A stretch of 64,000 nt of DNA from IMG/VR virus record IMGVR_UViG_3300046507_000407. One strand, given 5' to 3'. Position numbers and translations under genes: made by a program. Source of the DNA: an uncultured virus (IMG/VR IMGVR_UViG_3300046507_000407) (lineage: Duplodnaviria; Heunggongvirae; Uroviricota; Caudoviricetes; Schitoviridae). Position 1 is the stretch's first letter. Every line of letters begins with the position of its first letter. Shown here in pieces: positions 787 through 60,278 of the stretch. Below the pieces are notes generated by a model that ran no database searches, was not told where the DNA came from, and was given only the letters and a program-made list of their open reading frames with translations.

Positions 787-1596
787 ATGACCCAAGCCAG
801 AATCGACCATCAGAAGGAACTGGAGCACCTGTTCAGCAAGAACCAGCTGATGCCTCGCATGCGTGCGGAGTTCATGGCCGAGAAAGAGATCCTCGATCAC
901 CTGAAGGCGAACGGGATTCCCGAGGCTTTCGGCATCGACCTGCTCGTCCAGATGGCACTCCACAAGCGGTGCGACCTCGCCACCCTTGTTGGCTGCTTGA
1001 GGCATCACTGTCCCAAGGCCCAGGACGTGGCTGACCTGCTGCTCAAGTGTGCGGAGGCTGACCTCGTCACCTACAACACCATCCTGCGACAGTTCATCGT
1101 CATCTTCACAATCAGTGCAGATGTGCAGGAGGAGATTGACCGCTTCCAGTATCCACTTCCCATGGTAGTGGAGCCAAGGAAGATCACACACAACAAGCAG
1201 TCTGGTTATCTTCTGAACAACTCCAGTGTGATTCTGCGGGACAACCATCACGATGATGATGTGTGTCTCGATCACCTGAACCGACTCAACCGGATGAAGT
1301 TGCAGATCAACTTCAACACAGCGAAGCTCATCAACAATGAATGGAGAAACCTCGACAAACCCAAGGAAGGTGAAACCCGGGCCGAGTTCGAACGACGCGT
1401 GCGAGCTTTCGAGAAATACGACAAGACTTCTCATGCTGTCATCGAGCTACTTGTTCGGGAAGGCAACGAGTTCCACCTCACCCACCGCTACGACAAGCGT
1501 GGCAGAACCTACGCCCAGGGCTACCACGTCAACTACCAGTCCACTGCCTGGTGCAAGGCAGTCGTCGAATTCGTCGACGGGGGGGTGACGGTATGA
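787..1596 (+). CDS. N4-like RNA polymerase II subunit 1 (RNAP1, gp15-like)
   Basis: 269 aa; FQYPLPMVVEP and C-terminal YDKRGRTYAQGYHVNYQ (DxRGR motif) typical of the N-terminal half of the split T7-like RNAP. Confidence 0.93.
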   Translation: MTQARIDHQKELEHLFSKNQLMPRMRAEFMAEKEILDHLKANGIPEAFGIDLLVQMALHKRCDLATLVGCLRHHCPKAQDVADLLLKCAEADLVTYNTILRQFIVIFTISADVQEEIDRFQYPLPMVVEPRKITHNKQSGYLLNNSSVILRDNHHDDDVCLDHLNRLNRMKLQINFNTAKLINNEWRNLDKPKEGETRAEFERRVRAFEKYDKTSHAVIELLVREGNEFHLTHRYDKRGRTYAQGYHVNYQSTAWCKAVVEFVDGGVTV

Positions 1597-1781
1597 GCGA
1601 AGCCCGTGAGGTTGCAGAAGTTCTGCGGCCGCACTATCGCTGGTGGCGAGGCAAGCAGGCCAGCACTATGGAGCTTGCCCGCCGCTTTGTGTGTTCGCAG
1701 ATGGCCGCGGAAACTTACACGGTCATCGACAACGTGGCCACAGCCCTGCACCAACTTACCAAGGAACCAAGGATTGAATGA
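1593..1781 (+). CDS. hypothetical protein
   Basis: ATGA overlap with RNAP1 stop; ORF 1551..1781 trimmed to ATG 1593. Confidence 0.55.
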   Translation: MSEAREVAEVLRPHYRWWRGKQASTMELARRFVCSQMAAETYTVIDNVATALHQLTKEPRIE

Positions 1782-1930
1782 CTGAACCCGACAAGGACAT
1801 CAGGCACATCGAACAGCTCGCTGCTGCTCATCGTCGCCTGATGCGCCTGTTTAACCCTGCCACTGCACGAGACTGGATGGAGGAACTAAGGAAGGAAGTT
1901 AGCAAGGAAACAAGGAAAGTAGGAAGCTAG
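1778..1930 (+). CDS. small hypothetical protein (50 aa) running through the repeat tract
   Basis: ATGA overlap; MTEPDKDIRHIEQLAAAHRRLMRLFNPATARDWMEELRKEVSKETRKVGS. Confidence 0.4.
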   Translation: MTEPDKDIRHIEQLAAAHRRLMRLFNPATARDWMEELRKEVSKETRKVGS

Positions 1931-1935
1931 TTTCC
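1888..1935. repeat. tandem 8-bp (4-bp periodic) repeats, putative parS/par operator
   Basis: AAGGAAGG AAGTTAGC AAGGAAAC AAGGAAAG TAGGAAGC TAGTTTCC directly upstream of parA. Confidence 0.65.
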
Positions 1936-1990
1936 TGCCAATGAAGGATCCAGTATTGTTTACATGGAACCAACCTTCATTGGAGTTCGC

Positions 1991-2632
1991 ATGCTTACAA
2001 TCGTCTTCTCCAACCTCAAGGGTGGAGTCGGCAAATCGCTGCACACAGCCAACTTCTGTGTGGCGCTGGAAGACCAGGGCCAAGGCCCGGTTGTCACGAT
2101 GGACCTCGACGAACAGGGTACTCACGCTGGCTGGTGGAATGACCGCGGCCAGATGGAGGCACCGGCATTCGCCGCTGTCAGTGACTATACGCAGCTGGCC
2201 GCAGCACACGCTGAACTGGTCAGCGCCGGCTACAGGTGGTGTGTGATCGACACCCCACCGCGGCTGGCCACTATCTGCGAGGAAGCCATCCGACTGGCTG
2301 ACCTTGTCATCATCCCCTGCAAGCACGCCGTCGGAGACATGCGCGCCACCATGAAAACGGTGGAGCTCTGTGAGAGCATGGGCAAGAAGTTCATGTTCCT
2401 GCTCAATGAGACCAACGGCAAGGCCGTGACCGAGGAGGCTCGCAAGATCCTTGCAGGTATTGGGCCGGTGCTGCCGCAGGACATCCCGAAGAACAACCGT
2501 TACTGGCAGGCACTGGCCAAAGGCAAGGGCATCACCGAGGCCACCCAGACCAGTCCTGCACTGGCCGAGACGAAACTCGTGGAATTCGTCATCGCCAAGC
2601 TGACCCGCAAGAAGGAGGCGGCACATGTCTAA
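1991..2632 (+). CDS. parA: ParA-family partition ATPase (short type Ib, no N-terminal HTH)
   Basis: Deviant Walker A NLKGGVGKS, DLDEQG, Walker B VIDTPP, ADLVIIP; 213 aa from ATG 1991 with GGAG RBS. Confidence 0.93.
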   Translation: MLTIVFSNLKGGVGKSLHTANFCVALEDQGQGPVVTMDLDEQGTHAGWWNDRGQMEAPAFAAVSDYTQLAAAHAELVSAGYRWCVIDTPPRLATICEEAIRLADLVIIPCKHAVGDMRATMKTVELCESMGKKFMFLLNETNGKAVTEEARKILAGIGPVLPQDIPKNNRYWQALAKGKGITEATQTSPALAETKLVEFVIAKLTRKKEAAHV

Positions 2633-2969
2633 ACAGCATCTGGCAGGGCTAGTCCTGCGTCCGGGTCAGGCACAGCCTGCAAGTAACCGTGAAACGAACG
2701 TTCCTTCTAACCAACCTTCCAAGGAAGGAGCCAAGGAAGCAAGGGAGGAAATAGTCAGGGAAGTTTCCATGCCGGCCGTCAAGCGTCGTCCATGGGACGG
2801 GCTCGATGAACCGGTGAAGGGTAACTTCGAGGTCAATACCCGGCTGCTGGCCAAGCTCGCCTGGCTCAAGAGTGCCAAGCAGATCCGCACCCAGAAGGAC
2901 TTCGTCGCTGAGGTGCTGGAACGGGAGGCTGACAAGCTGATTGCCAAGGCCGAGAAGGAAGGCTACTGA
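2625..2969 (+). CDS. small ParB/ParG-type centromere-binding protein (disordered N-terminus, RHH-like C-terminus)
   Basis: Overlaps parA stop; 114 aa; low-complexity N-half; C-terminal strand-helix-helix pattern KGNFEVNTRLLAKLAWLKS...QKDFVAEVLEREADK. Confidence 0.7.
   Translation: MSKQHLAGLVLRPGQAQPASNRETNVPSNQPSKEGAKEAREEIVREVSMPAVKRRPWDGLDEPVKGNFEVNTRLLAKLAWLKSAKQIRTQKDFVAEVLEREADKLIAKAEKEGY
2681..2768. repeat. second 4-bp periodic repeat tract inside the parB-like gene
   Basis: TTCC TTCT AACC AACC TTCC AAGG AAGG AGCC AAGG AAGC AAGG GAGG ... AGGG AAGT TTCC; same units as 1888-1935 in both orientations. Confidence 0.55.
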
Positions 2970-3571
2970 TGAGCGAGGAAGAGGAAAAGCAGTTTGACCT
3001 GTTCCAGGCCGAGACCACCTGGTTTCACATCTTCCGGTCCATGATGGACTCAGGCGATGCGGCGAAGATGGGGGGCAACGCCTTCATGATCTACTGCATC
3101 ATCAAGGGCCACACCAACTTCAGGACGGGCAGGGCATTCCCTGGGATCGACGTGATCATGGAGAAGGCTGGCCTGTCCAAGTCCCAGGTGCTGCGCGAGC
3201 TCGATACGCTGGAGACCATGGGCTACATCACCCGGGCCAAGGAAGGCAGGAAGAACGTCTACACGCTGCGCGAGAAGATCGGCATCACCGATGAGAAGGG
3301 CAGGCCCATGGCGGACGCCACCTGGGATTACGTGCCGGATGGCGTACGGACTGCCGTGGCTGAGCTCAAGCATGTGATGATGACCGGCGACTTCAAGGGT
3401 GCGAAGATCATCCAGATCGAGAACATGACGGTGCACTTCAACCAGTTCAACGATAATTCCAGCCAGATCAACATGCAGAGCGTGCTGGAGAACATGGACA
3501 AGCTCGACCCGGCTTCCCGGGACCGGCTGCGCAGGCGGCTGGAAGAGGTGCAGGCAAGGCAGGCTGAATAG
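2969..3571 (+). CDS. winged-HTH replication initiator-like protein (Rep)
   Basis: HTH segment AFMIYCIIKGHTNFRTGRAFPGIDVIMEKAGLSKSQVLRELDTLETMGYI resembles HTH_36-type initiators; followed directly by iteron-like repeats and DnaA boxes. Confidence 0.72.
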   Translation: MSEEEEKQFDLFQAETTWFHIFRSMMDSGDAAKMGGNAFMIYCIIKGHTNFRTGRAFPGIDVIMEKAGLSKSQVLRELDTLETMGYITRAKEGRKNVYTLREKIGITDEKGRPMADATWDYVPDGVRTAVAELKHVMMTGDFKGAKIIQIENMTVHFNQFNDNSSQINMQSVLENMDKLDPASRDRLRRRLEEVQARQAE

Positions 3572-3696
3572 GTGTCAGCCATGACACCAATCAATAGGTG
3601 TCACGGGTGACACGTATCAGCCATGACACCTGGGAAATCCGGATAGGTGTCGTGCGTGACACCCTTTCATGGGTGATAGGTGTCTTGGGTGACACC
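3568..3696. repeat. five palindromic iteron-like repeats (ATA)GGTGTCA-N4-TGACACC
   Basis: Copies at 3568-3588, 3594-3614, 3613-3630, 3643-3663, 3676-3696. Confidence 0.88.
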
Positions 3697-3734
3697 CTAA
3701 CGAGAAGAGATGTTTACGTTAACAATACAGGGAG

Positions 3735-3757
3735 TTATCCACAAAATCTGTGGATAA
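3735..3757. promoter_or_regulatory. two inverted perfect DnaA boxes (putative oriV)
   Basis: TTATCCACA at 3735-3743 and TGTGGATAA at 3749-3757, preceded by AT-rich TGTTTACGTTAACAATA. Confidence 0.85.
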
Positions 3758-3770
3758 GTCGGAGGCCATG

Positions 3771-3986
3771 ATGAGCGATCCGCAGGAACCGAAGAACCTC
3801 GTACTGGTGAAGCTCGACCAGGTGCTGACCCAGCTGGGCCTGCTGCATGACGACATGCGTCAGGTCAAGACCCGCATGTCGGCACTGGAGCGGCAGATGC
3901 AGGTCACCAGTGAGTCCGTCGTGGCCCAGTGGGACACCTTTGACAACCACGCCGACCGGCTCGCCAAACTCGAAGCCCGCAGCTAA
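3771..3986 (+). CDS. small coiled-coil hypothetical protein
   Basis: GGAGG RBS, ATG 3768/3771; heptad pattern ending RLAKLEARS. Confidence 0.6.
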   Translation: MSDPQEPKNLVLVKLDQVLTQLGLLHDDMRQVKTRMSALERQMQVTSESVVAQWDTFDNHADRLAKLEARS

Positions 3987-4041
3987 TCCTGCCTGGGTAT
4001 CATCGGGCGTCTGTCCATGAAACCCGAGCCAAGGAACGAAA

Positions 4042-4269
4042 GTGGCCATCGAAAATATCCCACGATTTGAAACGGAGGAGCAGGAACTGCGCTGGATCCT
4101 CAACGAGTTGCACCGCGAGTACCAGCGCAAGGTGGCCCCCATCCTGAAGCGGCTGTCCAAGATCGATGCGGCCAAGCCACTGCCGCCCGTGAACGTCTCG
4201 GACTATGACCACTTCAACCAGCAGCAGCTGAACCAGCTGCTCGAACAATTCAGGAAAGGCAAGCCATGA
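4042..4269 (+). CDS. hypothetical protein
   Basis: 75-aa ORF, AAGGA RBS, GTG start. Confidence 0.6.
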   Translation: MAIENIPRFETEEQELRWILNELHREYQRKVAPILKRLSKIDAAKPLPPVNVSDYDHFNQQQLNQLLEQFRKGKP

Positions 4270-4472
4270 GCCAGGAAACGGCGATACCTGAGATAACCGA
4301 GCAGGAGCTGCAAGCCACGCTTGAGACGCTCCAACGAACAGAAGGGGAGCGGGCCAAGATCGTGGTGCAACAGTGGGCCGCGACACTTGCGCACCCCACA
4401 GCAGCACAATTCGAGCTACGTCATCGACTGAGACTCGCAGCCTTCGTCAAATACGCATCGCAGCGTCTCTGA
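4266..4472 (+). CDS. hypothetical protein
   Basis: 68-aa ORF with ATGA overlap. Confidence 0.55.
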   Translation: MSQETAIPEITEQELQATLETLQRTEGERAKIVVQQWAATLAHPTAAQFELRHRLRLAAFVKYASQRL

Positions 4473-4490
4473 CGCAACACCGCATTACAA

Positions 4491-4528
4491 GAAGCCACCG
4501 TGAGGCAACTCCGGTGGCTTTTTCTTTT
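4491..4528 (+). terminator. intrinsic terminator upstream of RNAP2
   Basis: AAGCCACCG-TGAGGCAACTC-CGGTGGCTT followed by TTTCTTTT. Confidence 0.75.
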
Positions 4529-4552
4529 GGTTCCTTTTGTGGAGTGACTACC

Positions 4553-5746
4553 ATGCAACGCTTCTCTGGCCTGCAGTACCTGAAGATCGACATCGCCAGC
4601 AACTTCGGTCTGGACAAGAAGACGTGGGACGAGCGGCTCGACTGGTTCGAGCAGCACAAGGACCACCTGCACGAGCTCATCAGCCAGGCCGAGACACCGG
4701 CACTCTTCTTCGCCGGCGTGACCGCCTACGAGAAGGCACTGCGCCGTGAAGCCTCGGGCTACCCGATCTCGCTCGATGCGACCAGTTCCGGATTCCAGAT
4801 CCTCGCCTGCCTGACTGGCGACCGTCTGGCCGCCGAGATGTGCAACGTCCTCTTCACTGGCTCGCGTGAGGATGCCTACACGGGCATCTACGAGCGCATG
4901 CTCGCCAAGGTCGGCGCCGAGGGCAGGATCCAGCGCCCCGACATCAAGCAGGCCGTCATGACGGCACTGTACGGCTCGCAGGCGGTACCCAAGCAGGTAT
5001 TCGGTGAGGGGCCGCTCCTGAACATGTTCTACGAGACCATGAAGGAGGCTGCCCCCTACGCCTGGGAACTGAACGAGGCGTTCCTGTCCATGTGGAACCC
5101 GGATGCGCTCATCAACAGCTGGGTGATGCCCGATAACTTCCACGTCCATGTGAAGGTCATGGGGCTCGTGACCGAGCGTGTGCACTTCCTGGGCGAGCCC
5201 ATCGATACGGTGAAGAAGGAGAACCTGCCGACGGAGGAGGGCAGGTCACTGGGTGCGAACACCATCCACTCCATCGACGGGATGATCGTGCGGGAGATGA
5301 ACCGCCGCTGCAACTACGATCCGGCCGTCATCAACCGGGTCTGGGACGCACTGGAAGGCAAGGGCGAGATTGGCTCCGACGAAGACGATGAAATGGTGAT
5401 GCTGCTGTGGAACCACTTCCGTGAGTCGGGCTACCTGTCGGCCCGCATTCTCGATCACCTGTATGTCGACAACGTCGATCTCGTCGACGAGGTGGAACTG
5501 CGTGAACTGCTGAACAGTCTGCCGGCCAAGCCGTTCCAGCTGCTCACCGTGCACGACTGCTTCCGCTGCCTGCCGAACTACGCCAACGACCTGCGTGAGC
5601 AGTACAACCTGCAGCTGGCCCTGATTGCGAAGAGCCGCATGCTGCAGTTCCTGGTGAGCCAGATCATGGGCCGCAAGATCGAGGTCAACAAGATCGACGG
5701 GAACATGTGGACCGAGATCGCAGAAACCGAGTACGCGCTGTCGTAA
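4553..5746 (+). CDS. N4-like RNA polymerase II subunit 2 (RNAP2, gp16-like)
   Basis: 397 aa from ATG 4553; motif A LDATSSGFQ, motif B RPDIKQAVMTALYGS, ANTIHSIDG, motif C VHDCF. Confidence 0.95.
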   Translation: MQRFSGLQYLKIDIASNFGLDKKTWDERLDWFEQHKDHLHELISQAETPALFFAGVTAYEKALRREASGYPISLDATSSGFQILACLTGDRLAAEMCNVLFTGSREDAYTGIYERMLAKVGAEGRIQRPDIKQAVMTALYGSQAVPKQVFGEGPLLNMFYETMKEAAPYAWELNEAFLSMWNPDALINSWVMPDNFHVHVKVMGLVTERVHFLGEPIDTVKKENLPTEEGRSLGANTIHSIDGMIVREMNRRCNYDPAVINRVWDALEGKGEIGSDEDDEMVMLLWNHFRESGYLSARILDHLYVDNVDLVDEVELRELLNSLPAKPFQLLTVHDCFRCLPNYANDLREQYNLQLALIAKSRMLQFLVSQIMGRKIEVNKIDGNMWTEIAETEYALS

Positions 5747-5757
5747 CCGGCGATTAA

Positions 5758-5845
5758 ACCGGAAGTGGCAACAGTGAATTGTCACTTCCGGTATTGCTTT
5801 TCTGCAGGTGCATAAAAGCAACGCAAACGGTTGCGCAATCTGCGT
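5758..5845. repeat. three abutting inverted repeats/hairpins
   Basis: ACCGGAAGTGGCAA/TTGTCACTTCCGGT (5758-5792), TTGCTTTTCTGC/GCATAAAAGCAA (5794-5821), ACGCA..TTGCGCAA..TGCGT (5821-5845). Confidence 0.65.
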
Positions 5846-6204
5846 AGCCACCTGACAAGGGCGCATTATTTGCCCGACGATGTCCCTACAGCGTCCCCCA
5901 ATACTCTTACGACCGTGCGCTGACACCTTTCAGCCCGGCAACCACACGACCTCAAAGTTAGTTCTATCGTCTGATGAAAGCTGGCGAGGCTACTGCACGC
6001 CCGTTCGTAAACTGGTCCATAAAAAGACTAGATGGATCAAGAAGATAGACACGTACCAGGGAATTCCCCTATGCAGTACCCCAGCGATCCTGATGGCACA
6101 AGGACCAGCCGTGCGCAACCAAAGTTACACTCAGAAAAACCTCTTTACACCTTAGGGAAGACTTGGCAGAATTTGCCCGCACTGAAGTAAGCAATCAGTA
6201 ACTT

Positions 6205-6232
6205 TGCCCACTGTGAGCGGTGGGCATTTTTC
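6205..6232 (+). terminator. intrinsic terminator
   Basis: TGCCCACTG-TGAG-CGGTGGGCA followed by TTTTT. Confidence 0.75.
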
Positions 6233-6255
6233 ATTCCGTTCGGAGCATCAACGTC

Positions 6256-6564
6256 ATGGCCAATCCCTTCGAGTCTGCCCGTCCCCACCTCTGGAACGGG
6301 CAGGGCCAGATCGGAAGTTTCGAGAAGTACATCTGTCACGCCCTGCAGCGGGCCGCAGATCGCAAGGCGGTAACGCAGGAAGTGGCAGACCAGGCTCGGG
6401 CCATGATTTACACCCGTCTCGGTGAATACCTGAGCGTTGAAAGCTGGCTGTGCTGTGAAGCCGGCATCCGCCTCGGAGAGATGGATCCGCTATCAGTGCA
6501 GGGTTATCGCTTTCGTTGGTTGGCTGACCTCTCAGCCAAATGGAACCAAGGAGAACGGAAGTGA
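6256..6564 (+). CDS. hypothetical protein
   Basis: ORF 6220..6564, likely ATG 6256 after GGAG. Confidence 0.65.
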   Translation: MANPFESARPHLWNGQGQIGSFEKYICHALQRAADRKAVTQEVADQARAMIYTRLGEYLSVESWLCCEAGIRLGEMDPLSVQGYRFRWLADLSAKWNQGERK

Positions 6565-7310
6565 TTTTTCCCCAGCAAGAACGCGTTGTGCACCAGCTCA
6601 GCCATGTCATGCGTGTGTTCGCAGAAAGCGAAGCCGCGATCCGTCCGCACTTTCACTTCACGGGTCCGTCCGGCTCGGGCAAGACGTATCTCCTTGGCCA
6701 GGTGGCCAAGGAGTACAAGCTGCCGATCATCGAAGTGAACGCAGCCGGTATCACGGCCGAAGGTCTGTCGGGCAACTCACTGTCCAAGGCACTGCGCAAG
6801 CTGCGGGATCACTGGACCGGCCCGAACATCATCTTCGTCGACGAGTTCGACAAGCTGTTCCAGCGCAACGGCGAGCAGACCGAAGGCTTCCGCTCGATGG
6901 TGCAGGACGAGTTCCTCACAGCACTGGAGAGCAAGTACACGTCGATTTTCACGGACTACGGCAAGTACGAGCCGTTCCGCATCGACAACTCGCTATTCGT
7001 GTTCGCCGGCGCCTACTCGAACCAGAAGATCGACAACCTGATGGGTCTGAAGGATGCCGGGCTGCGCACCGAATTCATCGGCCGCGTACCGCTCGTCTTC
7101 TGTACCGAAGAGGTACCGCTCGATGAGCTGCAGAAACACATCTGCAACGTCGAGCTCTACCAGAAGTACAAGGCGCTGTACCCGAACACGAAGGACGCAC
7201 TGGCTGCACGGGTCATCGTCCAGATGATGCAGACACAGGCAGAACAGACGCCCATCGGCATCCGCCTGCTGAACAGCGTCATCCATCAATATTTCATGCG
7301 TGACATCTAG
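6561..7310 (+). CDS. AAA+ ATPase (ClpX/HslU-like nucleotide-binding domain)
   Basis: Walker A GPSGSGKT, Walker B IIFVDEFDK, FVFAGAY and EFIGRVP segments as in ClpX-type AAA domains. Confidence 0.85.
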   Translation: MIFPQQERVVHQLSHVMRVFAESEAAIRPHFHFTGPSGSGKTYLLGQVAKEYKLPIIEVNAAGITAEGLSGNSLSKALRKLRDHWTGPNIIFVDEFDKLFQRNGEQTEGFRSMVQDEFLTALESKYTSIFTDYGKYEPFRIDNSLFVFAGAYSNQKIDNLMGLKDAGLRTEFIGRVPLVFCTEEVPLDELQKHICNVELYQKYKALYPNTKDALAARVIVQMMQTQAEQTPIGIRLLNSVIHQYFMRDI

Positions 7311-7321
7311 GAGTCCTCATT

Positions 7322-7570
7322 GTGAACGGTCCCCAAAACCTGCTTGAAATCGAGCTGCTGATCAAGGCGCATGTGTATGCAGAGTTCAAGCCGCCCACCT
7401 CGAGAGCACACGACGAGGCGGTGAACCGGCTGATGAAGCTCGACATGATCAGGCTCAATGTCGATGACCTGACCGTGACGACCACGCTGCGTGGCCAGTT
7501 CTGGGTCAATCACCTGTGCACGATTCCGTTTCCGGTGGAGAGCTACAGGATCCCGGAGACCGAGTCGTGA
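7322..7570 (+). CDS. hypothetical protein
   Basis: 82-aa ORF with AGGAG RBS. Confidence 0.6.
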   Translation: MNGPQNLLEIELLIKAHVYAEFKPPTSRAHDEAVNRLMKLDMIRLNVDDLTVTTTLRGQFWVNHLCTIPFPVESYRIPETES

Positions 7571-7668
7571 GTGCGGAGCAACTCATCATCCTCGCCATTG
7601 GCTCGCTGTTCTTCGCGGAACGCGTGCGCGAGATGCTGCGTGGCGTGAAAGATTTACAGGAGGAGTAA
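7567..7668 (+). CDS. small membrane peptide (33 aa)
   Basis: GTGA overlap; MSAEQLIILAIGSLFFAERVREMLRGVKDLQEE; fills the gap to the next RBS. Confidence 0.4.
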   Translation: MSAEQLIILAIGSLFFAERVREMLRGVKDLQEE

Positions 7669-7670
7669 CC

Positions 7671-7892
7671 ATGTGGGCATGCTTCATCGAATGGCTGAAA
7701 GAGTGGCTGCTGCGCAAGCTGGTGGCCGACCTGATCCGACGCAGTTACGGTCCCCACCTGTTCACGGTGATCACCGAGGAACACCTCAATCACTTCTGCG
7801 AGAACAACCTGCATGCCATCCGGGGGCGTATGCACGACCTGGTGGACCTGGCTGCTGACCGGGTAGCGGCACAAGGAGATCCACTGCTATGA
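7671..7892 (+). CDS. hypothetical protein
   Basis: AGGAGGAG RBS before ATG 7671. Confidence 0.6.
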   Translation: MWACFIEWLKEWLLRKLVADLIRRSYGPHLFTVITEEHLNHFCENNLHAIRGRMHDLVDLAADRVAAQGDPLL

Positions 7893-8155
7893 AGTACATC
7901 GTCGTCAAAATGCAGGATGGCTCGGAAGGTATCTTCACCTTCCCGCGAGAGATCGATCACGATCACTATCACGAGTCGCTGGCAGCTATCCGTTTCGGCG
8001 GCCGAGACTGGAAGCGCCATGTACTGGGCCGTCCGAGTGATCTGGTGTCCGCTGGCTTCATCGACAACGGCAGCTGCTATGGTCGAAGTGAAACACTAGG
8101 TGTTGCTTCCCGCGGTGTAACTGACACAGCACTTCTTCGTAAGGGTGGTCTATGA
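7889..8155 (+). CDS. hypothetical protein
   Basis: 88 aa, ATGA overlap; SAGFI...CYGRSETLG motif. Confidence 0.7.
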   Translation: MKYIVVKMQDGSEGIFTFPREIDHDHYHESLAAIRFGGRDWKRHVLGRPSDLVSAGFIDNGSCYGRSETLGVASRGVTDTALLRKGGL

Positions 8156-8508
8156 AACCGCCCATGATTCTGGATCGACGCAGCTCGATCCTGGACCGGA
8201 TCATGGAGCGAGTGGTGGTGCAGGATCTGGGCTTCCTGTTCGAGGGCCAGCCGAGTCCCTGTCATATCTGGACCGGTCCCACGAGTGGAGAAGGCAAGGG
8301 CGGTGGCTACGGCCGCATGAGCCTGAACGGTCAGACAGTCGCCACGCATCTGGTGGTCTACACCCACTACTTCGGCTACATCCCGGGCAAGAAACAGATC
8401 GATCACCTGTGCTGCAACCGGCTGTGCTGTAACCCGGTGCATCTTGAACTGGTGTCCCATATACGCAACCAACGCCGGCGAGCCAGCCGAGCCAAGGAAA
8501 AGACATGA
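8152..8508 (+). CDS. HNH endonuclease (N4 gp22-like)
   Basis: CHIWTG...GYG...IDHLCCNRLCCNPVHLELVS..N HNH signature. Confidence 0.88.
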   Translation: MKPPMILDRRSSILDRIMERVVVQDLGFLFEGQPSPCHIWTGPTSGEGKGGGYGRMSLNGQTVATHLVVYTHYFGYIPGKKQIDHLCCNRLCCNPVHLELVSHIRNQRRRASRAKEKT

Positions 8509-8873
8509 GCGCTGGCACTGTAAAGGGCAAGGCCTTGCTGGTCATCACCCGACGGGAGGACTGCTTCGAAGGTTTCTGCTGGGATATCAGCTGTTTCATC
8601 CAGTCGTGCAGTGGAAACGAAGACGCCAGGGACTGGGTCAAGGACGAGTTCGGGTGCGTCGAATATGACACCCATCCTGCACCGTCACCGGCCTACCAGA
8701 TGGAGATCGGAGAAACGATCCGCGTCTCGGTGGTTTATGTGCTTGATCACTGGACAGACTACTGGGGCGAAGGCAGCAGCAGGTTGGAATACACCAAGTG
8801 GCGGGTGCTCCGCAGACAGAAACCGAAGGAGCGCTACATCAGTAAAGCTCAACGAGCCAAGGAAAGAACATGA
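8505..8873 (+). CDS. hypothetical protein
   Basis: 122-aa ORF, overlapping start/stop with neighbours. Confidence 0.65.
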   Translation: MSAGTVKGKALLVITRREDCFEGFCWDISCFIQSCSGNEDARDWVKDEFGCVEYDTHPAPSPAYQMEIGETIRVSVVYVLDHWTDYWGEGSSRLEYTKWRVLRRQKPKERYISKAQRAKERT

Positions 8874-11594: not shown

Positions 11595-11842
11595 GCGCTG
11601 TATTGGCAGCTCTTCGCTATGCCGAGCTGGACGCCAACGTTGATCGTGCGTTCCTGCTGCACATCACGATGCGCTATGGACGGAAGATCGTGGGTGCCAT
11701 CTTTGGCAACACACCGGACATCGCTGCTGATGGTGGCATCGGCATCCAGATCTGGAGGAACAACCGGGAAACGGACGAGAAGCAGTTCGTCACCCTGGCC
11801 CACGTCCTCTGGTGTGAAATTGAATGGATGGACGGACAATGA
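11591..11842 (+). CDS. hypothetical protein
   Basis: 83-aa ORF, ATGA overlap. Confidence 0.6.
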   Translation: MSAVLAALRYAELDANVDRAFLLHITMRYGRKIVGAIFGNTPDIAADGGIGIQIWRNNRETDEKQFVTLAHVLWCEIEWMDGQ

Positions 11843-12984
11843 CACCCATCGACCCATCAACCATAGACCTGCGAACGCTGAACCGTGAGCTGGACAAGGT
11901 CAGATCGGAAGTCTTCCTGAAGCACGAGACCGCGGCCTTCCTTGGCTCGATCATGTCCACGCTGGAATTCATCTGGACCAAGGAGATTCCGACTGCGGCC
12001 ACCGACGGCATCCACTTCTGGTGGAACCTGGACTGGTTTGCTTCCCTGGCTCCCAAGGACCGCGGCACCGTCCTGCGTCATGAGCTCTGGCACGTTGCAC
12101 GCCTGCACATGATCCGGCAGGGCACCCGGGATCCGCATATGTGGAACATCGCCTGCGACTACGTGATCAACAACGATCTGAAGCTCGAAGGCTGTGACTT
12201 CACTTTCGGCGGACTCGTCGACTCGCAGTACGCCAGCATGGCCGAGGAAGACATCTACGACCAGCTGGCCAACAATCCGCCGATGCCTGACTTCGGCGCA
12301 TGGAAGCCCGGTGCCGGGCCGGACATGTTCCCGATGGACAAGGCCAAGAAGCAGCAGGTGATCAACACGGTCGTCACTGCGGTGCAGCAGGCCAAGATGT
12401 CCGGTGCCGGTACGGTACCCGGTGGCATTGCCGAGCTCGTCGAGCAGTTCCTCAAGCCCGTCGTGCCATGGCAGACGCTACTGCAGCGCTGGTTCAGCGA
12501 AATGCTGGACGAGGACTACTCGTGGTCCAAGCCCAACCGTCGCTACGACGACATGTACCTGCCGAGCCGGCGCCTGGAAATGGGGCGGCTCGAAAACCTG
12601 CGCTGGTACATCGACGTCTCGGGCTCGATCCGCATGAGCCATGCAGTGCGTTTCAAATCCGAACTCAAGTTTGTGAAAGAAACGTACCGTCCGGAGAAGC
12701 TCTCGGTCGTGCAGTTCGACACGAAAATCCAGCGAGTGGACACCTGGGGCGAGGATGACCCGTTCGACAAGCTGGAGATTCACGGTCGGGGAGGTACGTC
12801 TCTGGAGTGTGTCCGTAGAGATATGTTGGAGGAAAAACCAACCGCTGCTATCATCTTCTCGGACATGGAATGCACACCCATGAATCCCACCGGACTGCAG
12901 GACATACCCATCCTGTGGGTGATGTTGCCAAGTCGCAGCGGACACAGACCCAGTTTCGGTGACTGTGTCGAGATCCAGGAATAA
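11839..12984 (+). CDS. metallopeptidase-like plus vWA domain protein (N4 gp25-like)
   Basis: TAATDG, HELWH (HExxH), WNIACDYVIN; C-terminal MIDAS DVSGS, GRGGT, FSD. Confidence 0.88.
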   Translation: MTPIDPSTIDLRTLNRELDKVRSEVFLKHETAAFLGSIMSTLEFIWTKEIPTAATDGIHFWWNLDWFASLAPKDRGTVLRHELWHVARLHMIRQGTRDPHMWNIACDYVINNDLKLEGCDFTFGGLVDSQYASMAEEDIYDQLANNPPMPDFGAWKPGAGPDMFPMDKAKKQQVINTVVTAVQQAKMSGAGTVPGGIAELVEQFLKPVVPWQTLLQRWFSEMLDEDYSWSKPNRRYDDMYLPSRRLEMGRLENLRWYIDVSGSIRMSHAVRFKSELKFVKETYRPEKLSVVQFDTKIQRVDTWGEDDPFDKLEIHGRGGTSLECVRRDMLEEKPTAAIIFSDMECTPMNPTGLQDIPILWVMLPSRSGHRPSFGDCVEIQE

Positions 12985-20504: not shown

Positions 20505-22413
20505 AAATTTCGTGACCATTGTCGCCCTGTCGATCGATAGCCGCCATGCCGTGCTGTACAAGGAAGACGGCTCGACGCTGACGATCCCCCAGGGAGATGC
20601 CCGTCTGCCGCGTATCGTGAAGCAGTCGAAGTTCGAGCTGAAAAACGGCGTGCCGGCAACGGTCGACATCACCCCGGTCGTCATTCAACGCACCGAATTC
20701 CCGGATGCGGAGAAGGGCACCAAGGGCGTGATCAAGTTCTTCCGTGTAGCCAAGAGCTTCCTGAAGTCGCTCGTGAACACCGAGTCGCCGGAGGCCGTGC
20801 CCGAAGAAGTGGCCCACGTCTCGCCGCTGGAGATCGGAGTCTTTCCGGGCAAGGAAGCAACGAACCAAGGAACCAAGGAAGAAGATGCACCTGCAGATCC
20901 GACGCCGGCTGTGGCTGATGCGGCTCCGGTTCAGGCTGACCAGAAAGGACCGGGGTTCTTTGTCAACACTGCTGTCGGAGACCCAAACGCAACTACCGGT
21001 CAGTCCCAGGCTGCGCTGACCAATGACCAGAAGCTGGACGCAGCGCGAGAGCGCATGCACCAGCTGGTTAGCAACAGCGTGGGCACCAGTCAGGCCGAGT
21101 TCCATACGCCGCTCGACGAGCAGACGGAAACGATTGTGGCGGTCCATGAAAAGACCGGCGCCATCATTCCCGATGCGCACAAGCTCGCCCGGCAGCTGCG
21201 TTCGTCGCAGAAGCTGGAGAACTACGTGGGCTTCGAGCGCTTCATCGAACGCCTGTCGGCCATCATCGACCAGCGTGGTCACTCGGTCGAAGACCTGATG
21301 AAGTTCATCGAGAAGGGCGATCTGCCGATTGCGGACGACGGTTGCATCGTCATCTACAAACGGCTCAATAGCCGCGGTGACCACTTCGTCGATGTGCACA
21401 CGGGCAAGATCCCGCAGAAGGTCGGCTCGTATGTGTTCATGCGTGCCGGCCTGGTGGATCCGAACCGTCGCCAGGACTGCTCGAACGGCCTGCACGTTGC
21501 TTCGCTCTCGTACCTGAACGCTTTCAGCGGCAATGTGACGGTGATCGCCAAGGTCCGTCCGGAAGATGTATTTGCGGTACCGCAATACGCGCACAACAAG
21601 ATGCGTGTGTGCGGGTACCACATCCTGGCGAACCTGTCGAATAACCTGCGTGACATCGTCAACAGAGGTGGCTCGATCAGCTCCGATGCCGAAGGTGCAC
21701 GCCTGCTGGCCAACGTGCTGAAGGGCAACCACGTCGGCATTTCCCAGCACGTCGAGATCGGCGGTCACCAGGGCGAGAATGTGACCGTCACGAAGGTGGC
21801 GAATGCAGTGTCGGCCGATCAGCTGCCGGCGCTCAAACTCGATACGGCGCAGACGCTCGACATGCAGGAAGCACTCGAAGCGAAGGCACCGGTGGCTCCG
21901 GAGATCAAGGCCAAGGACCTGATTTCAGCGCCTGCTGAAAAGGTGTTAATTAACATTATGTCAAGTGACCCCAAAGAAACCTCGGGGGAAGTGGCAAATA
22001 AGTCCGTACAAACCGAAGGTAAATTGAGCCAGAAGGAAAAAGCTGCTCAGCTTCTGCATATCGCCCAGACGGCAATGTCGTTCCCCGCCGAAGTGGCTGC
22101 AGTCAAAGCACTGGTCGAGTTCCGTAAATCCACCCGAAAGGGATGGTCGGCACTCGGAATTGATGCGGGCGACGTACTTCATATCGAGAGGGTTCTCGGT
22201 CTGGAATACAAGCCAGTAAACGCTCCCAAGCCTGTGAAGGCCCCGAGCAAAGGCTCCAAGAAGGTGCAAAAGGCTGAGACGCCGAGCAAGATTTCGCCGC
22301 AGGATAAAGCGTATACCTTGCTGGCTCAAGGACTTAGCAACATCGAGGTGGCCAACCAGACCGGCCTGTCCAAAGACCAGGTCTATCGACTGAAGAAAAA
22401 GCTGCCGAAGTAA
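20497..22413 (+). CDS. rIIB: rIIB-like protein with C-terminal HTH
   Basis: DLPIADDGCIVIYK, DPNRRQDCSNGLHVAS, KVRPEDVFAVP, KMRVCGY; follows rIIA. Confidence 0.9.
   Translation: MNKNFVTIVALSIDSRHAVLYKEDGSTLTIPQGDARLPRIVKQSKFELKNGVPATVDITPVVIQRTEFPDAEKGTKGVIKFFRVAKSFLKSLVNTESPEAVPEEVAHVSPLEIGVFPGKEATNQGTKEEDAPADPTPAVADAAPVQADQKGPGFFVNTAVGDPNATTGQSQAALTNDQKLDAARERMHQLVSNSVGTSQAEFHTPLDEQTETIVAVHEKTGAIIPDAHKLARQLRSSQKLENYVGFERFIERLSAIIDQRGHSVEDLMKFIEKGDLPIADDGCIVIYKRLNSRGDHFVDVHTGKIPQKVGSYVFMRAGLVDPNRRQDCSNGLHVASLSYLNAFSGNVTVIAKVRPEDVFAVPQYAHNKMRVCGYHILANLSNNLRDIVNRGGSISSDAEGARLLANVLKGNHVGISQHVEIGGHQGENVTVTKVANAVSADQLPALKLDTAQTLDMQEALEAKAPVAPEIKAKDLISAPAEKVLINIMSSDPKETSGEVANKSVQTEGKLSQKEKAAQLLHIAQTAMSFPAEVAAVKALVEFRKSTRKGWSALGIDAGDVLHIERVLGLEYKPVNAPKPVKAPSKGSKKVQKAETPSKISPQDKAYTLLAQGLSNIEVANQTGLSKDQVYRLKKKLPK
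21939..21966 (+). other. dif-like XerC/XerD recombination site candidate (11-6-11)
   Basis: AAAGGTGTTAA TTAACA TTATGTCAAGT; right arm 9/11 identical to the E. coli XerD arm TTATGTTAAAT; AT-rich island in a GC-rich gene. Confidence 0.45.
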
Positions 22414-35297: not shown

Positions 35298-35340
35298 AAA
35301 AACCCCCAGTGCCCTGAGAGAGCCTGGGGGTTTTTCTTTT
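35298..35340. terminator. bidirectional intrinsic terminator between convergent arms
   Basis: AAAAACCCCCAG...CTGGGGGTTTTTCTTTT. Confidence 0.8.
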
Positions 35341-38300
35341 TAGTGGCTGAAGATATTCACCCACGGGTTGAGCATCGGTGCATGGGCGATCTGTCCCATC
35401 CCGAAGCTGAACGACAGTTGCCCATCGGCCAGTTTCGTGAAGATGTTGTCCGAGATCGGTGTACCGATGGAGCCAAGGAAGGAAGGCGCCGGGGCCAGTC
35501 CGGCCAGCAGTGCATGCACCGGATTGTTGCGGATCATCGAGAGTGCCACCTTGGCCGAGCGGATCTTGAAGTTGTAGAACCACAAGAGACCCATCGATTC
35601 GGTGTAACCCCGAAAGCGACCCGGCAGACGGTCATAGTTGACGTACTCCTCCGTCACCCGGGCCAGTGCATATTCCCTGCTCTTGCGCTGACGCTGGGTG
35701 AGATCGTCATACAGGATGGCCTTGGCCAGGAAGTCCCCGTACTCGACTGCCGTCTGCATCCCCTTGAAGAGCGCCGTATCCTTGGTGATCAGTGCATAGC
35801 GGCCCGCCGTCCTGATGCCCGGAGGCAGCTTGTCGACCAGACCCTCGATGTACGAATGCAGGCGCCCCGACGTCAGTTCCACTTCCTCAGCCGTGGCCTG
35901 GCCGTCGGAGATCGCACTGAACTCCCCTGCCTGGATCAGCGGCCAGATCGAGAGCCGCTTGTGGCTGTCCTGGATCGAGCGGATCTCGGCACCCAGCTTG
36001 CGCTGGGCGATCACGTCACCGCGGCCTTCTGCAGCACGCAGCTCCGCATCGGCTTCAATGCGGCGCAGCTCCGAGGCCACATAGGCTTTCACCTCAGCAG
36101 TCTTCTTCGGCATGCCCGTGATAATCGCCTTCAGCGGCACACCGCGGGAGGCCAGCTGGTAGCCGTTGGAAATCAGGTTGGCCACCGGCACCACCACCGA
36201 CTTGACCACGATCATCGTCTTCACGTCACCGACGAAGTTCTGGAAGGTCTTCTCGGCATTGACCATGTACTCATAGGCCTTGTTGCCGAACACCGACATC
36301 GCCATGCGCTGCACCTGCTTCTGTGCCGCATCACTCCAGCGGGAGTTGCCGGTCCACGCATCACCCACCGAGGCCGAGCGGTAGCCCAGTGCATCGTTGA
36401 GCATGTCCCGGCGCACGTAGAACTGCTTGCCGAACTTCTGCTCGATCTGCTGACGCATCTGCGGAGTGATCAGCCGCACGGCATCACGCAGCACCGGATC
36501 CTTCGCCCATTCGCGTTTGTCGAACACGTCGATGTAGCGCGACTGGTTGCCGGCCGACTCGTTGATGTCAGTCGTGTGCATGTCAGCGAGCTTGTCGATC
36601 AGCTGGTTGTTGTAGTCCGCGGCCAGCTGCTCCTCGACCTGACGGCCACGCCACACACCCAGCATCTGGTGCAGCTGCGAGTTGAACTGCAGCTTGCTGT
36701 TCACGATCTGCGAATCCAGTGCACGCTCATAGGCCACCACTTCACCGGTCTCGTCGAACACCGGCATCAGGTGTTCACCGGTCTCCATGCCGGTCATGAT
36801 GACAGCCTGTGCACGCTGGACTGCCTTCGGATCCGTGATCCGGCCGGCAGAGGCCATCTGCGAGTAGCCCGAGGACACATCCACGCCACCGGCCGTCTGC
36901 CGCACGTTCTGCAGAATGCCCTGCTGGAATGCCTGACGGCCACTGACCGGCTGGAAGTAGTAACCCTTCTTCGTGCGGCCGGTCTCAGCATTGCTGCCCT
37001 TGTAGTCACCCAGGCGCACGTAGGACTGACCCACCAGTCGGGCGTACTCCGAGTCATCGGCAACGATGAGGGAAGAACCTGCCTGCTGGACCTGCGGGAT
37101 GTAGCCCTTGAAGTGATTCAGAAGCGCACGGTCATTGGACTGGGCCTTGGTCATTTCATCCACACGCTGACCTTGCAGGTAAGACAGTGCGAACTTGATG
37201 CCCTTCTCTTCCTGCACAGTCAGGTTGAGCAGCTTCACCTGTTCTTCCTGGCTCATCTCATTGAGCGCATAAAGCGAGGTGAGTTGGTCCACAGCCTTGG
37301 TGAGTGCCGGGTCAACCTTACCCACCAGCCACTTCGGCGTACCTGCCATCCGGGCAATCGCTGTTGCGTTGCGCAGAAGGTTCGATGCAGTCTCCCCCGT
37401 CATCATGTAGTGGGCGAGTTCCTTCATCTTCTTCTGACGGAAGTCGAAGTTCGGCTTGTCGAGCGACCTGATCTCAGCTTCCAGATCCTTGATCTTCGCA
37501 TCGCGTGCCTTGCTGTCCTTGAGCATGTCGAGCACTTCGCTCTGGCTCATGCCCTGAACCAGGGAAGCCAGATCCGAGCGGCCCATGCCCTTGTGCAGCA
37601 GATCCCACTCCTGCTCGGTGAGCGTGCGGCCGAACTGCTGCGCGATGATGGTCGGCACTTCCTCGCGGAACTGCTGGCGCATCTTCTGGATCATCGAGCG
37701 CACGGTCTTGATCATGTCGTAGACCTGCGCATTCGAGGCTACCCGGCCGATCATGTCGTGCACGAGATCGGTGAAAGGCTTGAACGCCTGGATCCGGTTG
37801 GCATAGGTGAGCATGCCCTCTGCCACCAGTCCGGCCTGGTCCTCATTGACGATAGCGGCGAAGAGCCGGGTTGCAGCGGCCGCCGTCTTCGTCAGCCTGT
37901 TGTCGAACTTCGCATCGAGCGCTTCAGCCTTGTTCACCGCTCCCTGGGCCAGTGCGTTCATTCCCTGGATCATGTAGTCGTTGGCCGAGTCGACCAGACC
38001 ACCACTGTTCTTCAGGTACAGGTCCAGTGCCGTCTGGCGTTCCTGGGCGATGTCGATGAACCGGTTGCCCAGTGCATCCATCGCAGCGAGCACGTCTTTC
38101 GACTTGCCCTCTCCGGAGATCCGGCGACCGAGCGAGTCGAGCACGTCGGTGGCCAGATTCTCCAGTGCCCGGTCCACTTTCGATTCCGCCTTCGAGCGCT
38201 CCTGCTTCTCGACAGCGATCTTCGCCAGCACACCGCGGAACTGGTCGTTGGTCATGGAGAGAGCGACGAACGTCGGCAGCAGCGTCGAGCGCCCTGCACT

Positions 38301-58426: not shown

Positions 58427-58965
58427 GGGGCGGTATCCGTGTTGAGGAGCTGGCGATCCGCCATCAGTTGCTGGCCGACTTGCACGAGCTGTCGGTCACG
58501 CAGTTCAACAGTTGCCCGGAGCTCTCCAACCAGAGATCGGCCCGCTTCAAGAGCCCGGTCGAGTTCGGCTGTATGGCCTGCGAGATCTGCGCACTGAGCG
58601 CCTCCGCCTTGGGCCTGACGTTGATAAATTGCGGCCCGGGCGGCACTGCGCTGCACGCTGAGATCAGCATCACGGCGCACAGCAGCAAGCTGTTGCGCGT
58701 GTGCTTCAGAAGCCGCATCGAGTGCGTCCGCTGCACGTTGGGAGTCATGGGCATGCTCTTTTTCCTTGTCCGCGTACTCAGCCCGGAGCCTGTCCGTGGC
58801 CTCGTTGCGCGCTATCTTGTCTGCATCCCATTTGGACTGGATCTCGGCTTTTCCGTGATCCACTCCAGATGAGTAGCAATACCAACCTGCTCCACCGACG
58901 ACGACTGCCGGCAACACACAGTAGAGCAGGAGTCTAGGTAGAACCATGGGAGGTCTCCCCTTCAT
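58423..58965 (-). CDS. i-spanin (Rz-like)
   Basis: N-terminal TM helix followed by coiled coil; downstream of endolysin. Confidence 0.8.
58464..58718 (-). CDS. o-spanin (Rz1-like lipoprotein) embedded in the i-spanin
   Basis: [22 protein letters not shown] lipobox, Pro-rich linker; different frame, entirely inside the i-spanin. Confidence 0.75.
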
Positions 58966-59554
58966 CCTTGCACCGCTCTAGCGGCACGTTTCCGATACGG
59001 TTCGATACCCAGCCGGTTGTGTACTGGTTGAGTCCCGTGAGACTCATGTAATACACAGCCTGTTGGGCATCGAGTAACTTGACCACCAGCTCACAGGCCT
59101 GGACTCTTCCCCGAAGACGCTGCAATGCCTGGTACGCCTGAATTGTTCCTGGGCCGACTTTACCATCAACATAAGTTGAGGGGAAGTCACGCCCACCTCT
59201 GTTCAGGGAGTTGAGTGCTTTCTGGAGCCAGAGAGAAGGACGGGCCGGGCCAGTATTCACAGCACTGTCCACCAGTTCCTGTGCGACTGCCGGAGACAGT
59301 TTCAGGAACGGTTCAAAGCCCGGTTTCCGGATGTAATCTTCGAAGTAAATTGAGGTAGCCAGCTCCTGACTGAGACTCTTCATCGGGCCGGTGTAGCCGT
59401 GCTGCACCGCGACCGCCTGGGTGATCCCGTGATTGGTTTCTCCCCCTGGGTCTTTGGGGTCATTAACGTAGCCGCCTTCCACTGCGAAGACGGCTGCGAT
59501 AATGGCCGCTGCTACCCCACCAATCCCGGCTTTTTTCGCGTTACTGACTGGCAT
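58934..59554 (-). CDS. endolysin, GH108 N-acetylmuramidase with SAR-like N-terminus (N4 gp61-like)
   Basis: EGGYVNDPKDPGGETNHGIT, DSAVNTG, VDGKVGPGT, GWVSNRI; Gly/Ala-rich hydrophobic N-terminus. Confidence 0.92.
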   Translation of the reverse strand: MPVSNAKKAGIGGVAAAIIAAVFAVEGGYVNDPKDPGGETNHGITQAVAVQHGYTGPMKSLSQELATSIYFEDYIRKPGFEPFLKLSPAVAQELVDSAVNTGPARPSLWLQKALNSLNRGGRDFPSTYVDGKVGPGTIQAYQALQRLRGRVQACELVVKLLDAQQAVYYMSLTGLNQYTTGWVSNRIGNVPLERCKDEGETSHGST

Positions 59555-59795: not shown

Positions 59796-59796
59796 G

Positions 59797-60144: not shown

Positions 60145-60161
60145 TTGCTGGCCTGTAAACG

Positions 60162-60201: not shown

Positions 60202-60278
60202 TTGGTGAGCCGCAGATGGGCGTCACTGGGTTACGGAATGTACTCGGATGATACGCGAAGGCTGGTTAGCACTCCAGT

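Follow-up and report, generated by a model that had tools for sequence, protein, structure and literature searches.

A probable plasmid-type replication and partition cassette between the RNA polymerase genes of an N4-like phage: a candidate Schitoviridae phage-plasmid

N4-like phages are regarded in textbooks as obligately lytic and are, partly for this reason, favored for therapy and biocontrol. Why, then, does the genome of such a phage carry what appears to be the replication and partition apparatus of a plasmid? This question is raised by a 64,000-nucleotide stretch of the uncultured virus IMGVR_UViG_3300046507_000407 (hereafter the window), in which a 2.8-kb insert separates the genes for the small and large subunits (RNAP1 and RNAP2) of the N4-type RNA polymerase (RNAP) II. 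The insert contains three overlapping genes encoding a ParA ATPase, a 114-amino-acid protein, and a winged helix-turn-helix (wHTH) protein. The comparative analysis described below supports the interpretation of this locus as that of a phage-plasmid. The insert is probably a self-contained plasmid-type maintenance module, with which the phage would persist as a low-copy circular episome and would reserve its own polymerase, primase, and helicase for lytic growth.

The window has a GC content of 59% and covers most of an N4-like (Schitoviridae) phage genome. Its source contig, the longest of the three metagenome contigs recorded for its wHTH protein, is 77,677 bp long, and the window thus represents about 82% of a phage-length contig. 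The set of genes that characterizes the Schitoviridae is present, namely a gene for a giant virion RNAP (a 3621-amino-acid open reading frame (ORF) on the minus strand, 35340–46205), the two-subunit RNAP II, and an N4-type structural module. PHROG annotation revealed an N4-type DNA polymerase, primase, Dda-like helicase, SSB, rIIA/rIIB, portal, major head protein, and a lysis cassette. According to the PHROG and Pfam matches, this phage gene set and plasmid replication and partition genes are located on one replicon. Across the 64-kb window, these matches also bear out the view of the earlier note that the lytic genes look intact and that no integrase is visible. No match to a terminase was obtained within the window; about 13.7 kb of the source contig lies outside it. 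At the DNA level, a search of a phage collection returned only short stretches of RNAP1 and rIIB, and a search of a plasmid collection returned no match to the window.

The arrangement of the three genes as a translationally coupled set between RNAP1 and RNAP2 agreed with the first description of the locus, as judged from the coordinates, the overlaps, and the PHROG assignments of the bordering genes (Table 1). The ATG codon of the gene for the 114-amino-acid protein overlaps the parA stop codon by 8 nt, and the junction of this gene with the wHTH gene is TGATG, a 1-nt overlap. Translation of parA is more likely to start at 1991, behind GGAG, than at 1964. With 213–222 amino acid residues and KGGVGKS near its N-terminus, the ParA protein has the characteristics of type Ib ParA proteins, which are small (about 200–220 residues), carry the deviant Walker A motif KGGxxK[ST], and lack a DNA-binding domain at the N-terminus. 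Its match to the NCBIfam family ParA_partition (7e-32) was under the curated cut-off, and its best solved relatives were ParF/ParA of TP228 (2e-7).

The wHTH protein is the candidate initiator. It showed matches to PHROG families of replication initiation, including phrog_270 (1e-9), the O-like families 678, 391, and 345 (2e-5 to 1e-3), and the DnaD-like family 186, and a protein search yielded 173 homologues. In Pfam and NCBIfam, it belongs to no recognized Rep family (Rep_3, TrfA, RPA, and similar families) and was assigned to HTH_36 only. The predicted model (pLDDT 66) consists of a single wHTH domain, and a minority of its neighbors in the Atlas had matches to DnaD_N or RP-C, which we regard as leads only. 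The proposal in the earlier note that this protein is a plasmid initiator therefore stood in part: the PHROG matches and the parallel change of repeats and wHTH allele, described below, agree with it, but the protein is not a member of the classical iteron-Rep proteins. Its matches are not confined to transcription regulators; Foldseek and NCBIfam gave generic or regulator matches, whereas PHROG gave the replication-initiation families.

The region immediately downstream of the wHTH gene has the features expected of an origin. All four copies of TAGGTGTC in the 64-kb window are located in the palindrome region, where the palindromes lie; 0.64 copies were expected, and none of 100 shuffled sequences reached four. 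The palindromes are followed by a stretch (3699–3760) with a GC content of 37%, compared with 59% for the window, in which the two DnaA boxes are located. Seven matches to TTATCCACA or sequences like it were found in the window, and the five other than these two boxes carry one mismatch each and are far away. Accordingly, the two perfect DnaA boxes previously noted downstream of the trio held up as the only perfect pair in the window, and the initiator sites are adjoined by both DnaA boxes and an AT-rich region (37–39% GC). The iterons that had been proposed to accompany them were confirmed as repeats downstream of the wHTH gene but not as iterons in the strict sense: in place of several direct repeats, there are four to five spaced inverted repeats, that is, palindromes in the style of lambda O.

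The upstream side of the operon carries a different kind of repeat. The density of AAGGAA-like motifs in the 64 kb peaks at 1888–1947, with 10 motifs per 60 nt compared with a window mean of 0.22, and the second-densest segment is 2701–2760 (7 per 60 nt; cluster extent 2701–2765), inside the gene for the 114-amino-acid protein. Clusters of CCAAGGAA/TTCCTTGG are likewise present upstream of parA in five related loci (L008, L011, L044, L045, and L061). These arrays are candidates for a centromere to which the 114-amino-acid protein may bind. Further CAAGGAA/AAGGAA clusters were observed elsewhere, at 20850–20880 in rIIB with 16- and 8-nt spacing and at 698–730 just upstream of RNAP1 (AAGGAAGGAAGGAATGAAGG); they may be extra binding sites or merely Lys-Glu codons and ribosome-binding sites.

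The N-terminal peptide of the 114-amino-acid protein is conserved; it is followed by a K/E-rich, disordered middle part and by a C-terminal domain of two helices. In the AlphaFold2 (AF2) monomer, residues 1–60 are disordered, helices span residues 62–83 and 90–111, and no strand is present. Sequence searches with the protein and with its family yielded no Pfam, PHROG, NCBIfam, or PDB match, and Foldseek with the model gave nothing meaningful. The description of this protein as ribbon-helix-helix (RHH)-like in the earlier note was confirmed by no tool, and the sole hint was weak structural matches in the Atlas to ParD, RHH_1, and RHH_3 (TM 0.40–0.42). Its homologues are always encoded between the ParA and wHTH genes. 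The gene position, the coupling, the conserved N-terminal peptide, and the adjacent repeat arrays suggest a ParG-like role.

Table 1. Features of the insert between RNAP1 and RNAP2 and of its borders (positions in the window).
Feature	Position	Strand	Remarks
RNAP1, N4-type RNAP II small subunit, gp15-like	787–1596	+	phrog_2166 'N4-like RNA polymerase', 1.9e-101; left border of the insertion
Small ORFs	1551–1781, 1778–1930	+	No Pfam/PHROG family; the latter shares sequence with the repeat array and is perhaps not a gene
AAGGAA-like motif array, candidate parS-like centromere/operator	1886–1947		Period of about 8 bp; repeat families D3, D7, and D8; upstream of parA
Small ParA, type Ib-like Walker ATPase	1964–2632	+	NLKGGVGKS; phrog_164, 8.8e-28; Pfam AAA_31, CbiA, MipZ
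114-amino-acid protein, candidate centromere-binding adaptor (ParG-like role)	2625–2969	+	Position; overlaps with both neighbors
200-amino-acid HTH_36 winged-helix protein, candidate origin-binding initiator	2969–3571	+	Pfam HTH_36, 3.2e-10
Four to five palindromes ATAGGTGTC-N5/6-GACAC(C), candidate initiator-binding sites	3568–3698		Four copies, starting at 3568, 3594, 3643, and 3676, and one variant at 3614–3631
AT-rich conserved spacer (CTAACGAGAAGAGATGTTTACGTTAACAATAC), candidate DNA-unwinding element	3699–3734		39% GC compared with 59% for the window
Two perfect inverted DnaA boxes TTATCCACA	3735–3743, 3749–3757	+, −	5 nt apart; only perfect matches in the window
Small ORFs between origin and RNAP2	3750–3986, 4042–4269, 4266–4472	+	No family
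RNAP2, N4-type RNAP II large subunit, gp16-like	4373–5746	+	phrog_2051, 1.6e-159; Pfam RNA_pol; right border

The distribution of the cassette, consisting of the genes for ParA, the small protein, and the wHTH protein, was analyzed in N4-like relatives. A scan of IMG/VR with RNAP2 retrieved 59 N4-like loci, 57 of which contain an RNAP1 homologue. The cassette was present between RNAP1 and RNAP2 in all four loci with the highest RNAP2 identity (78, 70, 65, and 63%). None of the other 55 loci, with RNAP2 identities of 61% or lower, has any cassette gene, and the distance between RNAP1 and RNAP2 in them varies from 62 nt to 4.2 kb. A search for parA between the gp15 and gp16 homologues, as the earlier note had suggested, was thus positive in 4 of 59 loci, all of them the closest relatives. 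The same scan of representative genomes yielded seven loci, all in metagenome-assembled genomes (MAGs), and none of the four examined carries the cassette; in two of these representative-genome loci, the nearest cassette-free relatives, RNAP1 and RNAP2 are adjacent. The conservation in the four closest loci, together with the adjacency of the RNAP genes in cassette-free relatives, indicates an insertion that stayed in place during substantial divergence of the backbone.

The palindromes were found to change together with the wHTH protein. The same layout, with lineage-specific cores, is present in L008, L011, L044, L045, L061, and pA29BJ2, a Polaromonas plasmid. The core is GGTGTC..GACACC in the window, L008, and the T7-like L011; GGTGAC..GTCACC in L044 (wHTH identity of 61%); GGTCTC..GAGAC in L061 (54%); and CCCTTAT...TAAGGG in pA29BJ2. 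L045 has five palindromes with the core CCATCACCCATGATGG. After the last palindrome, a motif with invariant columns, GACACCCTAAC.AGA..AGAT.TT.A...TTAACAA, is common to six loci. In every compared lineage (the window, L008, L011, L044, L061, L045, and pA29BJ2), the palindrome array is followed by a perfect TTATCCACA, and each of the six relatives has at least one such box at the same place. These sequence comparisons show that the repeats co-vary with the wHTH allele. A changing protein with changing sites, next to a constant DnaA box and AT-rich spacer, is the pattern predicted for an origin and its initiator.

The most pronounced change was observed in L045 (IMGVR_UViG_3300046457_000143, 77,934 bp; cassette at 3337–5160). 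This locus retains ParA (61%) and the small protein (46%), and its third gene is an allele nearer to that of the Polaromonas plasmid (31%). The change of the third gene together with the repeats looks like a swap of replicon specificity, or incompatibility.

Relatives of the window phage were found in bacterial isolates. Homologues of the wHTH protein with identities of 89 and 85% are encoded on a 77,653-bp contig of the Paraburkholderia sp. SIMBA_054 assembly and a 77,218-bp contig of the Caballeronia sp. LZ034LL assembly, respectively. An RNAP2 homologue (80%) in Caballeronia sp. LZ034LL is likewise on a contig of 77,218 bp, and a partial RNAP2 match was obtained on a 76,468-bp contig of Paraburkholderia sp. 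SIMBA_049. Judged from their sizes alone, these phage-sized contigs fit a separate replicon better than an integrated prophage.

A second N4-like element, known from Acinetobacter, is only distantly related but provides the clearer case of an episomal state. The phage vB_IME_Ab2712 (OK149216.1), obtained from hospital sewage and filed under Schitoviridae, shows 99.3% identity over 97.6% of its length to pRBH2-3 (NZ_CP110465.1, 75,126 bp), which was recorded as a circular plasmid from an A. baumannii isolate. The element thus has database entries as a phage and as a circular plasmid. Ab2712 shares with the window RNAP2 (35%), capsid, portal (45%), primase, and polymerase; it has a giant ORF of 3646 amino acids, which the giant ORF of the window matches. 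A search for the virion polymerase in Ab2712 with the 1666-amino-acid central piece of the window ORF gave no match, and tblastn with the whole ORF gave a 25% match. The annotation of pRBH2-3 includes an 'N4-gp56 family major capsid protein'. We considered an error in the taxonomic label of Ab2712 and rejected it on the grounds of the N4-type RNAP2, capsid, portal, primase, and polymerase common to both genomes.

The gene order of the trio in Ab2712 is that of the window, with parA (protein identity of 32.5%) followed by a small ORF and the gene for an HTH_36 protein (39%). Unlike the trio of the window, however, the Acinetobacter trio is located at another genome site, its small ORF has no detectable homology to the 114-amino-acid protein, and no DnaA box is present in the first 330 nt downstream. 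The trio lies within a region of about 27 kb without a match in the window (about 23.3–50.9 kb of OK149216.1 and 2.6–30 kb of pRBH2-3), which also encodes a serine recombinase/invertase, an Ltp-type superinfection-exclusion lipoprotein, an amidase endolysin, a 2662-amino-acid tail-fiber-like protein, ThyX, and a ribonucleotide reductase. The different location of the trio points to a separate acquisition. The Rep-like protein of the Ab2712/pRBH2-3 element was found on about 150 contigs from A. baumannii assemblies (not de-duplicated across sources), and the longest contigs were 62–77 kb for eight of its nine sequence variants. As a separate observation on this record, a 749-amino-acid protein at 58104–60353 of NZ_CP110465.1 (8104–10353 in locus L017) is named 'chromosome partitioning protein ParB' in RefSeq, and it corresponds by position to the N4-type portal; the portal of the window (56159–58426) matches the equivalent Ab2712 stretch at 45%, and the ParB label is likely a misnaming.

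These distributions bear on an alternative in which the phage is strictly lytic. The cassette would then be carried along incidentally or in an inactive form, for example as a remnant of plasmid recombination, or would function only during lytic growth, for instance in DNA positioning or by providing an additional origin, and the isolate contigs would be due to contamination or to a transient carrier state. The lytic genes all look intact, PHROGs and Pfam revealed no lysogeny regulator in the window, and the characterized N4-like phages are lytic, all of which this explanation would account for. However, the three genes of the cassette are intact and overlapping, and the cassette has retained its site in relatives with RNAP2 identities as low as 63%. 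The initiator and repeats have co-evolved and were swapped as a unit in one lineage, a pattern difficult to account for if their function were not under selection. Lytic replication does not need the cassette, because 55 of the 59 related N4-like loci grow without it. Furthermore, the cassette-bearing relatives are found in named isolates, whereas the seven representative-genome RNAP2 loci, although a small sample of which four were examined, are all MAGs, and none of the four has the cassette. We consider this explanation improbable.

The three genes are not restricted to N4-like phages. The Polaromonas sp. plasmid pA29BJ2 (NZ_MN657148.1, 104 kb) contains the same trio in the same order at 3514–5130, with identities to the window of 36.5% for the wHTH protein and 32% (E-value of 3e-7) for the small protein. 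Three palindromes interleaved with DnaA boxes follow on the 3′ side of the trio. In contrast to the window, this is an accessory/catabolic plasmid without phage genes, and its gene content includes catabolic, toxin-antitoxin, and restriction genes and MobC. Its listed coding sequences include no named initiator, and 21 unnamed proteins gave no match to a Rep family; the gene table is incomplete, and the lack of another initiator is therefore supportive rather than conclusive. Five IMG/VR contigs of 16–45 kb (L009–L013) contain the trio with a wHTH identity of 70–71% and the same origin layout. One of them, L011, is a T7-like podovirus encoding DNA polymerase I, an exonuclease, a T7-lysozyme-like protein, a capsid protein, and a scaffold protein, in which the cassette (5202–8760) directly follows a gene for a Xer-like tyrosine recombinase. 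T7-like podoviruses would thus be a second phage group of lytic type with the plasmid kit.

The wHTH gene was also found apart from parA. Chromosome 2 of Burkholderia sp. LMG 32019 encodes, at around 3.10 Mb, a protein 53% identical to the wHTH protein. Its gene is accompanied by the conserved origin motif, has no parA nearby, and is part of an integrative element, in which it lies between a tyrosine integrase gene and conjugation genes (NikA-like/TrbL). The wHTH gene and origin motif without ParA were present in this and other Burkholderiales genomes (5 of 401 sampled). A protein-pattern scan of representative genomes with the wHTH protein returned nothing, and an alignment-based scan returned only relatives with 45–60% identity. 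These occurrences indicate that the initiator/origin half and the ParA/small-protein half are separable units, which argues against the wHTH protein as a mere centromere binder of a three-part partition system.

Such a system is the other alternative to be considered. The trio would then serve partition only, with the wHTH protein as the centromere binder, the palindromes as the centromere, and the 114-amino-acid protein as an adaptor; there would be no dedicated initiator, and the episome would be replicated by other functions. The best solved-structure matches of the wHTH protein, which include TubR (E-value of 0.003) and AspA (Foldseek, 2.5e-3), are compatible with this arrangement, and pNOB8, which has a three-part ParA/adaptor/wHTH partition arrangement, provides a precedent. 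This explanation is, in our view, improbable as well: the wHTH protein, repeats, and AT-rich motif occur in Burkholderia integrative elements without ParA or the small protein; the repeats are always followed by a perfect DnaA box and an AT-rich stretch, neither of which a centromere needs; the PHROG matches of the wHTH protein are replication-initiation families; pA29BJ2 would be left without a recognizable initiator; and the AAGGAA arrays beside parA form a separate candidate centromere.

For a phage-plasmid with its own initiator and partition system, the following mechanism is proposed. The host RNAP would read the genes for ParA, the 114-amino-acid protein, and the wHTH protein as a single operon with translational coupling. 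The wHTH protein would bind as dimers to the four to five palindromes just downstream and, together with host DnaA at the adjoining boxes, open the AT-rich stretch, so that the host replisome could copy the circle. The 114-amino-acid protein may bind the AAGGAA arrays as a centromere, and its conserved N-terminal peptide may drive ParA to segregate the copies in a type Ib-like manner. The replication machinery of the phage itself would be used for lytic growth only. Early transcription in N4 depends on a polymerase injected from the virion. An episome lacking that protein could therefore, speculatively, stay silent without a classical repressor.

Each part of the proposed module resembles a known system in some respects and differs from it in others. 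The P1 plasmid prophage has RepA and oriR with DnaA boxes, a ParA-ParB-parS system, and C1 immunity. Like P1, which is a low-copy episome in lysogeny, the window combines the lytic functions of a tailed phage with an initiator of its own, repeats and DnaA boxes at a candidate origin, and a partition operon of the ParA type. However, RepA of P1 is an iteron Rep protein with two winged helices acting on direct repeats, whereas the window encodes a single-wHTH HTH_36 protein accompanied by palindromes; the P1 partition system is of type Ia, with a large ParA and ParB, whereas that of the window consists of a small ParA and a partner without a known family; and no counterpart of C1 immunity was found in the window, the backbone of which is N4-like with a virion RNAP. 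Lambda O has an N-terminal winged helix and binds as dimers to about four dyad-symmetric repeats by an AT-rich region. The candidate origin in the window resembles ori-lambda in its winged-helix protein, its approximately four dyad-symmetric repeats by an AT-rich region, and the O-like PHROG matches. In contrast, ori-lambda forms part of the O gene itself, and the P-DnaB complex is recruited by O, whereas the repeats of the window are downstream of the gene and no P-like loader was seen in the window; the DnaA boxes suggest DnaA-dependent loading. The partition half resembles the ParF-ParG-parH system of TP228, in which the tetramer boxes of parH have 8-bp spacing. Both have a small Walker ParA, a small partner gene directly downstream, and short-period repeats upstream of the operon, but the 114-amino-acid partner has no detectable similarity to ParG or any RHH family.

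Several observations weigh against the window phage being a phage-plasmid. The PHROG and Pfam matches across the 64-kb window include no repressor, anti-repressor, or integrase. A consensus promoter scan detected no sigma-70-like site upstream of parA; one such site was detected at 3719–3747, and shuffled sequences gave as many. The CAAGGAA motif is over-represented across the whole window, with 38 copies found compared with 7.2 expected, because it resembles Shine-Dalgarno sites and Lys-Glu codons; its clustering alone, rather than the motif, is therefore unusual and counts as evidence. The RHH fold of the 114-amino-acid protein is unconfirmed. The fold matches of the wHTH model are to generic winged-helix proteins only, including regulators and the centromere binders AspA and TubR (E-values of about 3e-3), and NCBIfam gave weak regulator matches only. 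The phage-sized isolate contigs could stem from a contaminating or carrier-state lytic phage, the record of Ab2712 is marked UNVERIFIED, and the window itself is metagenomic.

A broader scenario may be put forward tentatively for both N4-like groups. Two Schitoviridae lineages, a Burkholderiaceae-associated clade including the window and an Acinetobacter lineage, may have become temperate phage-plasmids independently by acquiring related cassettes of ParA and an HTH_36 initiator at different sites. Their lysogeny would do without a classical repressor, and the episome would be silent until a trigger leads to expression of the virion polymerase. The cassette, found in T7-like podoviruses as well, would then be a portable kit for lysogeny by plasmid in phage types that are regarded as obligately lytic. 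Taken as a whole, this scenario is possible but doubtful.

Full-text literature searches, the coverage of which excludes most subscription journals, returned no paper on an N4-like or Schitoviridae phage-plasmid or prophage among the matches listed. In a term search of the Schitoviridae family paper (PMC7650795), the terms temperate, lysogen, plasmid, partition, and prophage each had zero occurrences, and term searches in PMC8224337, PMC4533152, PMC6193963, and PMC13366799 revealed nothing relevant. In Table S1 of PMC12977533, NZ_CP110465 (pRBH2-3) is listed with the MM-GRC entry '210 community', the geNomad call 'Phage', and no assigned phage-plasmid (P-P) type, an entry under an unnamed community that may represent an uncurated phage-plasmid call. 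The N4-like nature of pRBH2-3 is not stated in the passages and table rows of that paper that deal with it, and the AB_1 type described there is a different, SSU5-like group of 101–122 kb. Phage-plasmids are well known as a kind; an N4-like backbone for one is not described within the literature searched.

If the phage-plasmid interpretation is correct, the Schitoviridae include temperate members, and neither membership in the family nor a missing integrase reveals the lifestyle of a phage. Isolates of A. baumannii may then carry N4-like elements that are unrecognized and annotated simply as plasmids. The interpretation also raises the question of how a phage is silenced when its early genes are read by an injected polymerase. 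In addition, the comparison defines a compact mobile initiator/origin family, consisting of an HTH_36 protein, palindromes, and a DnaA box, that occurs in plasmids, integrative elements, and two groups of podoviruses.

Of the small ORFs flanking the cassette, that at 1551–1781 has a 56% match in L008, and that at 3750–3986 is 58% conserved in the same locus. Genes for HNH endonucleases were observed at 8152–8508 (phrog_1872, 1.9e-43) and 11824–12984 (phrog_1314, 2.3e-118), amid early and middle genes.

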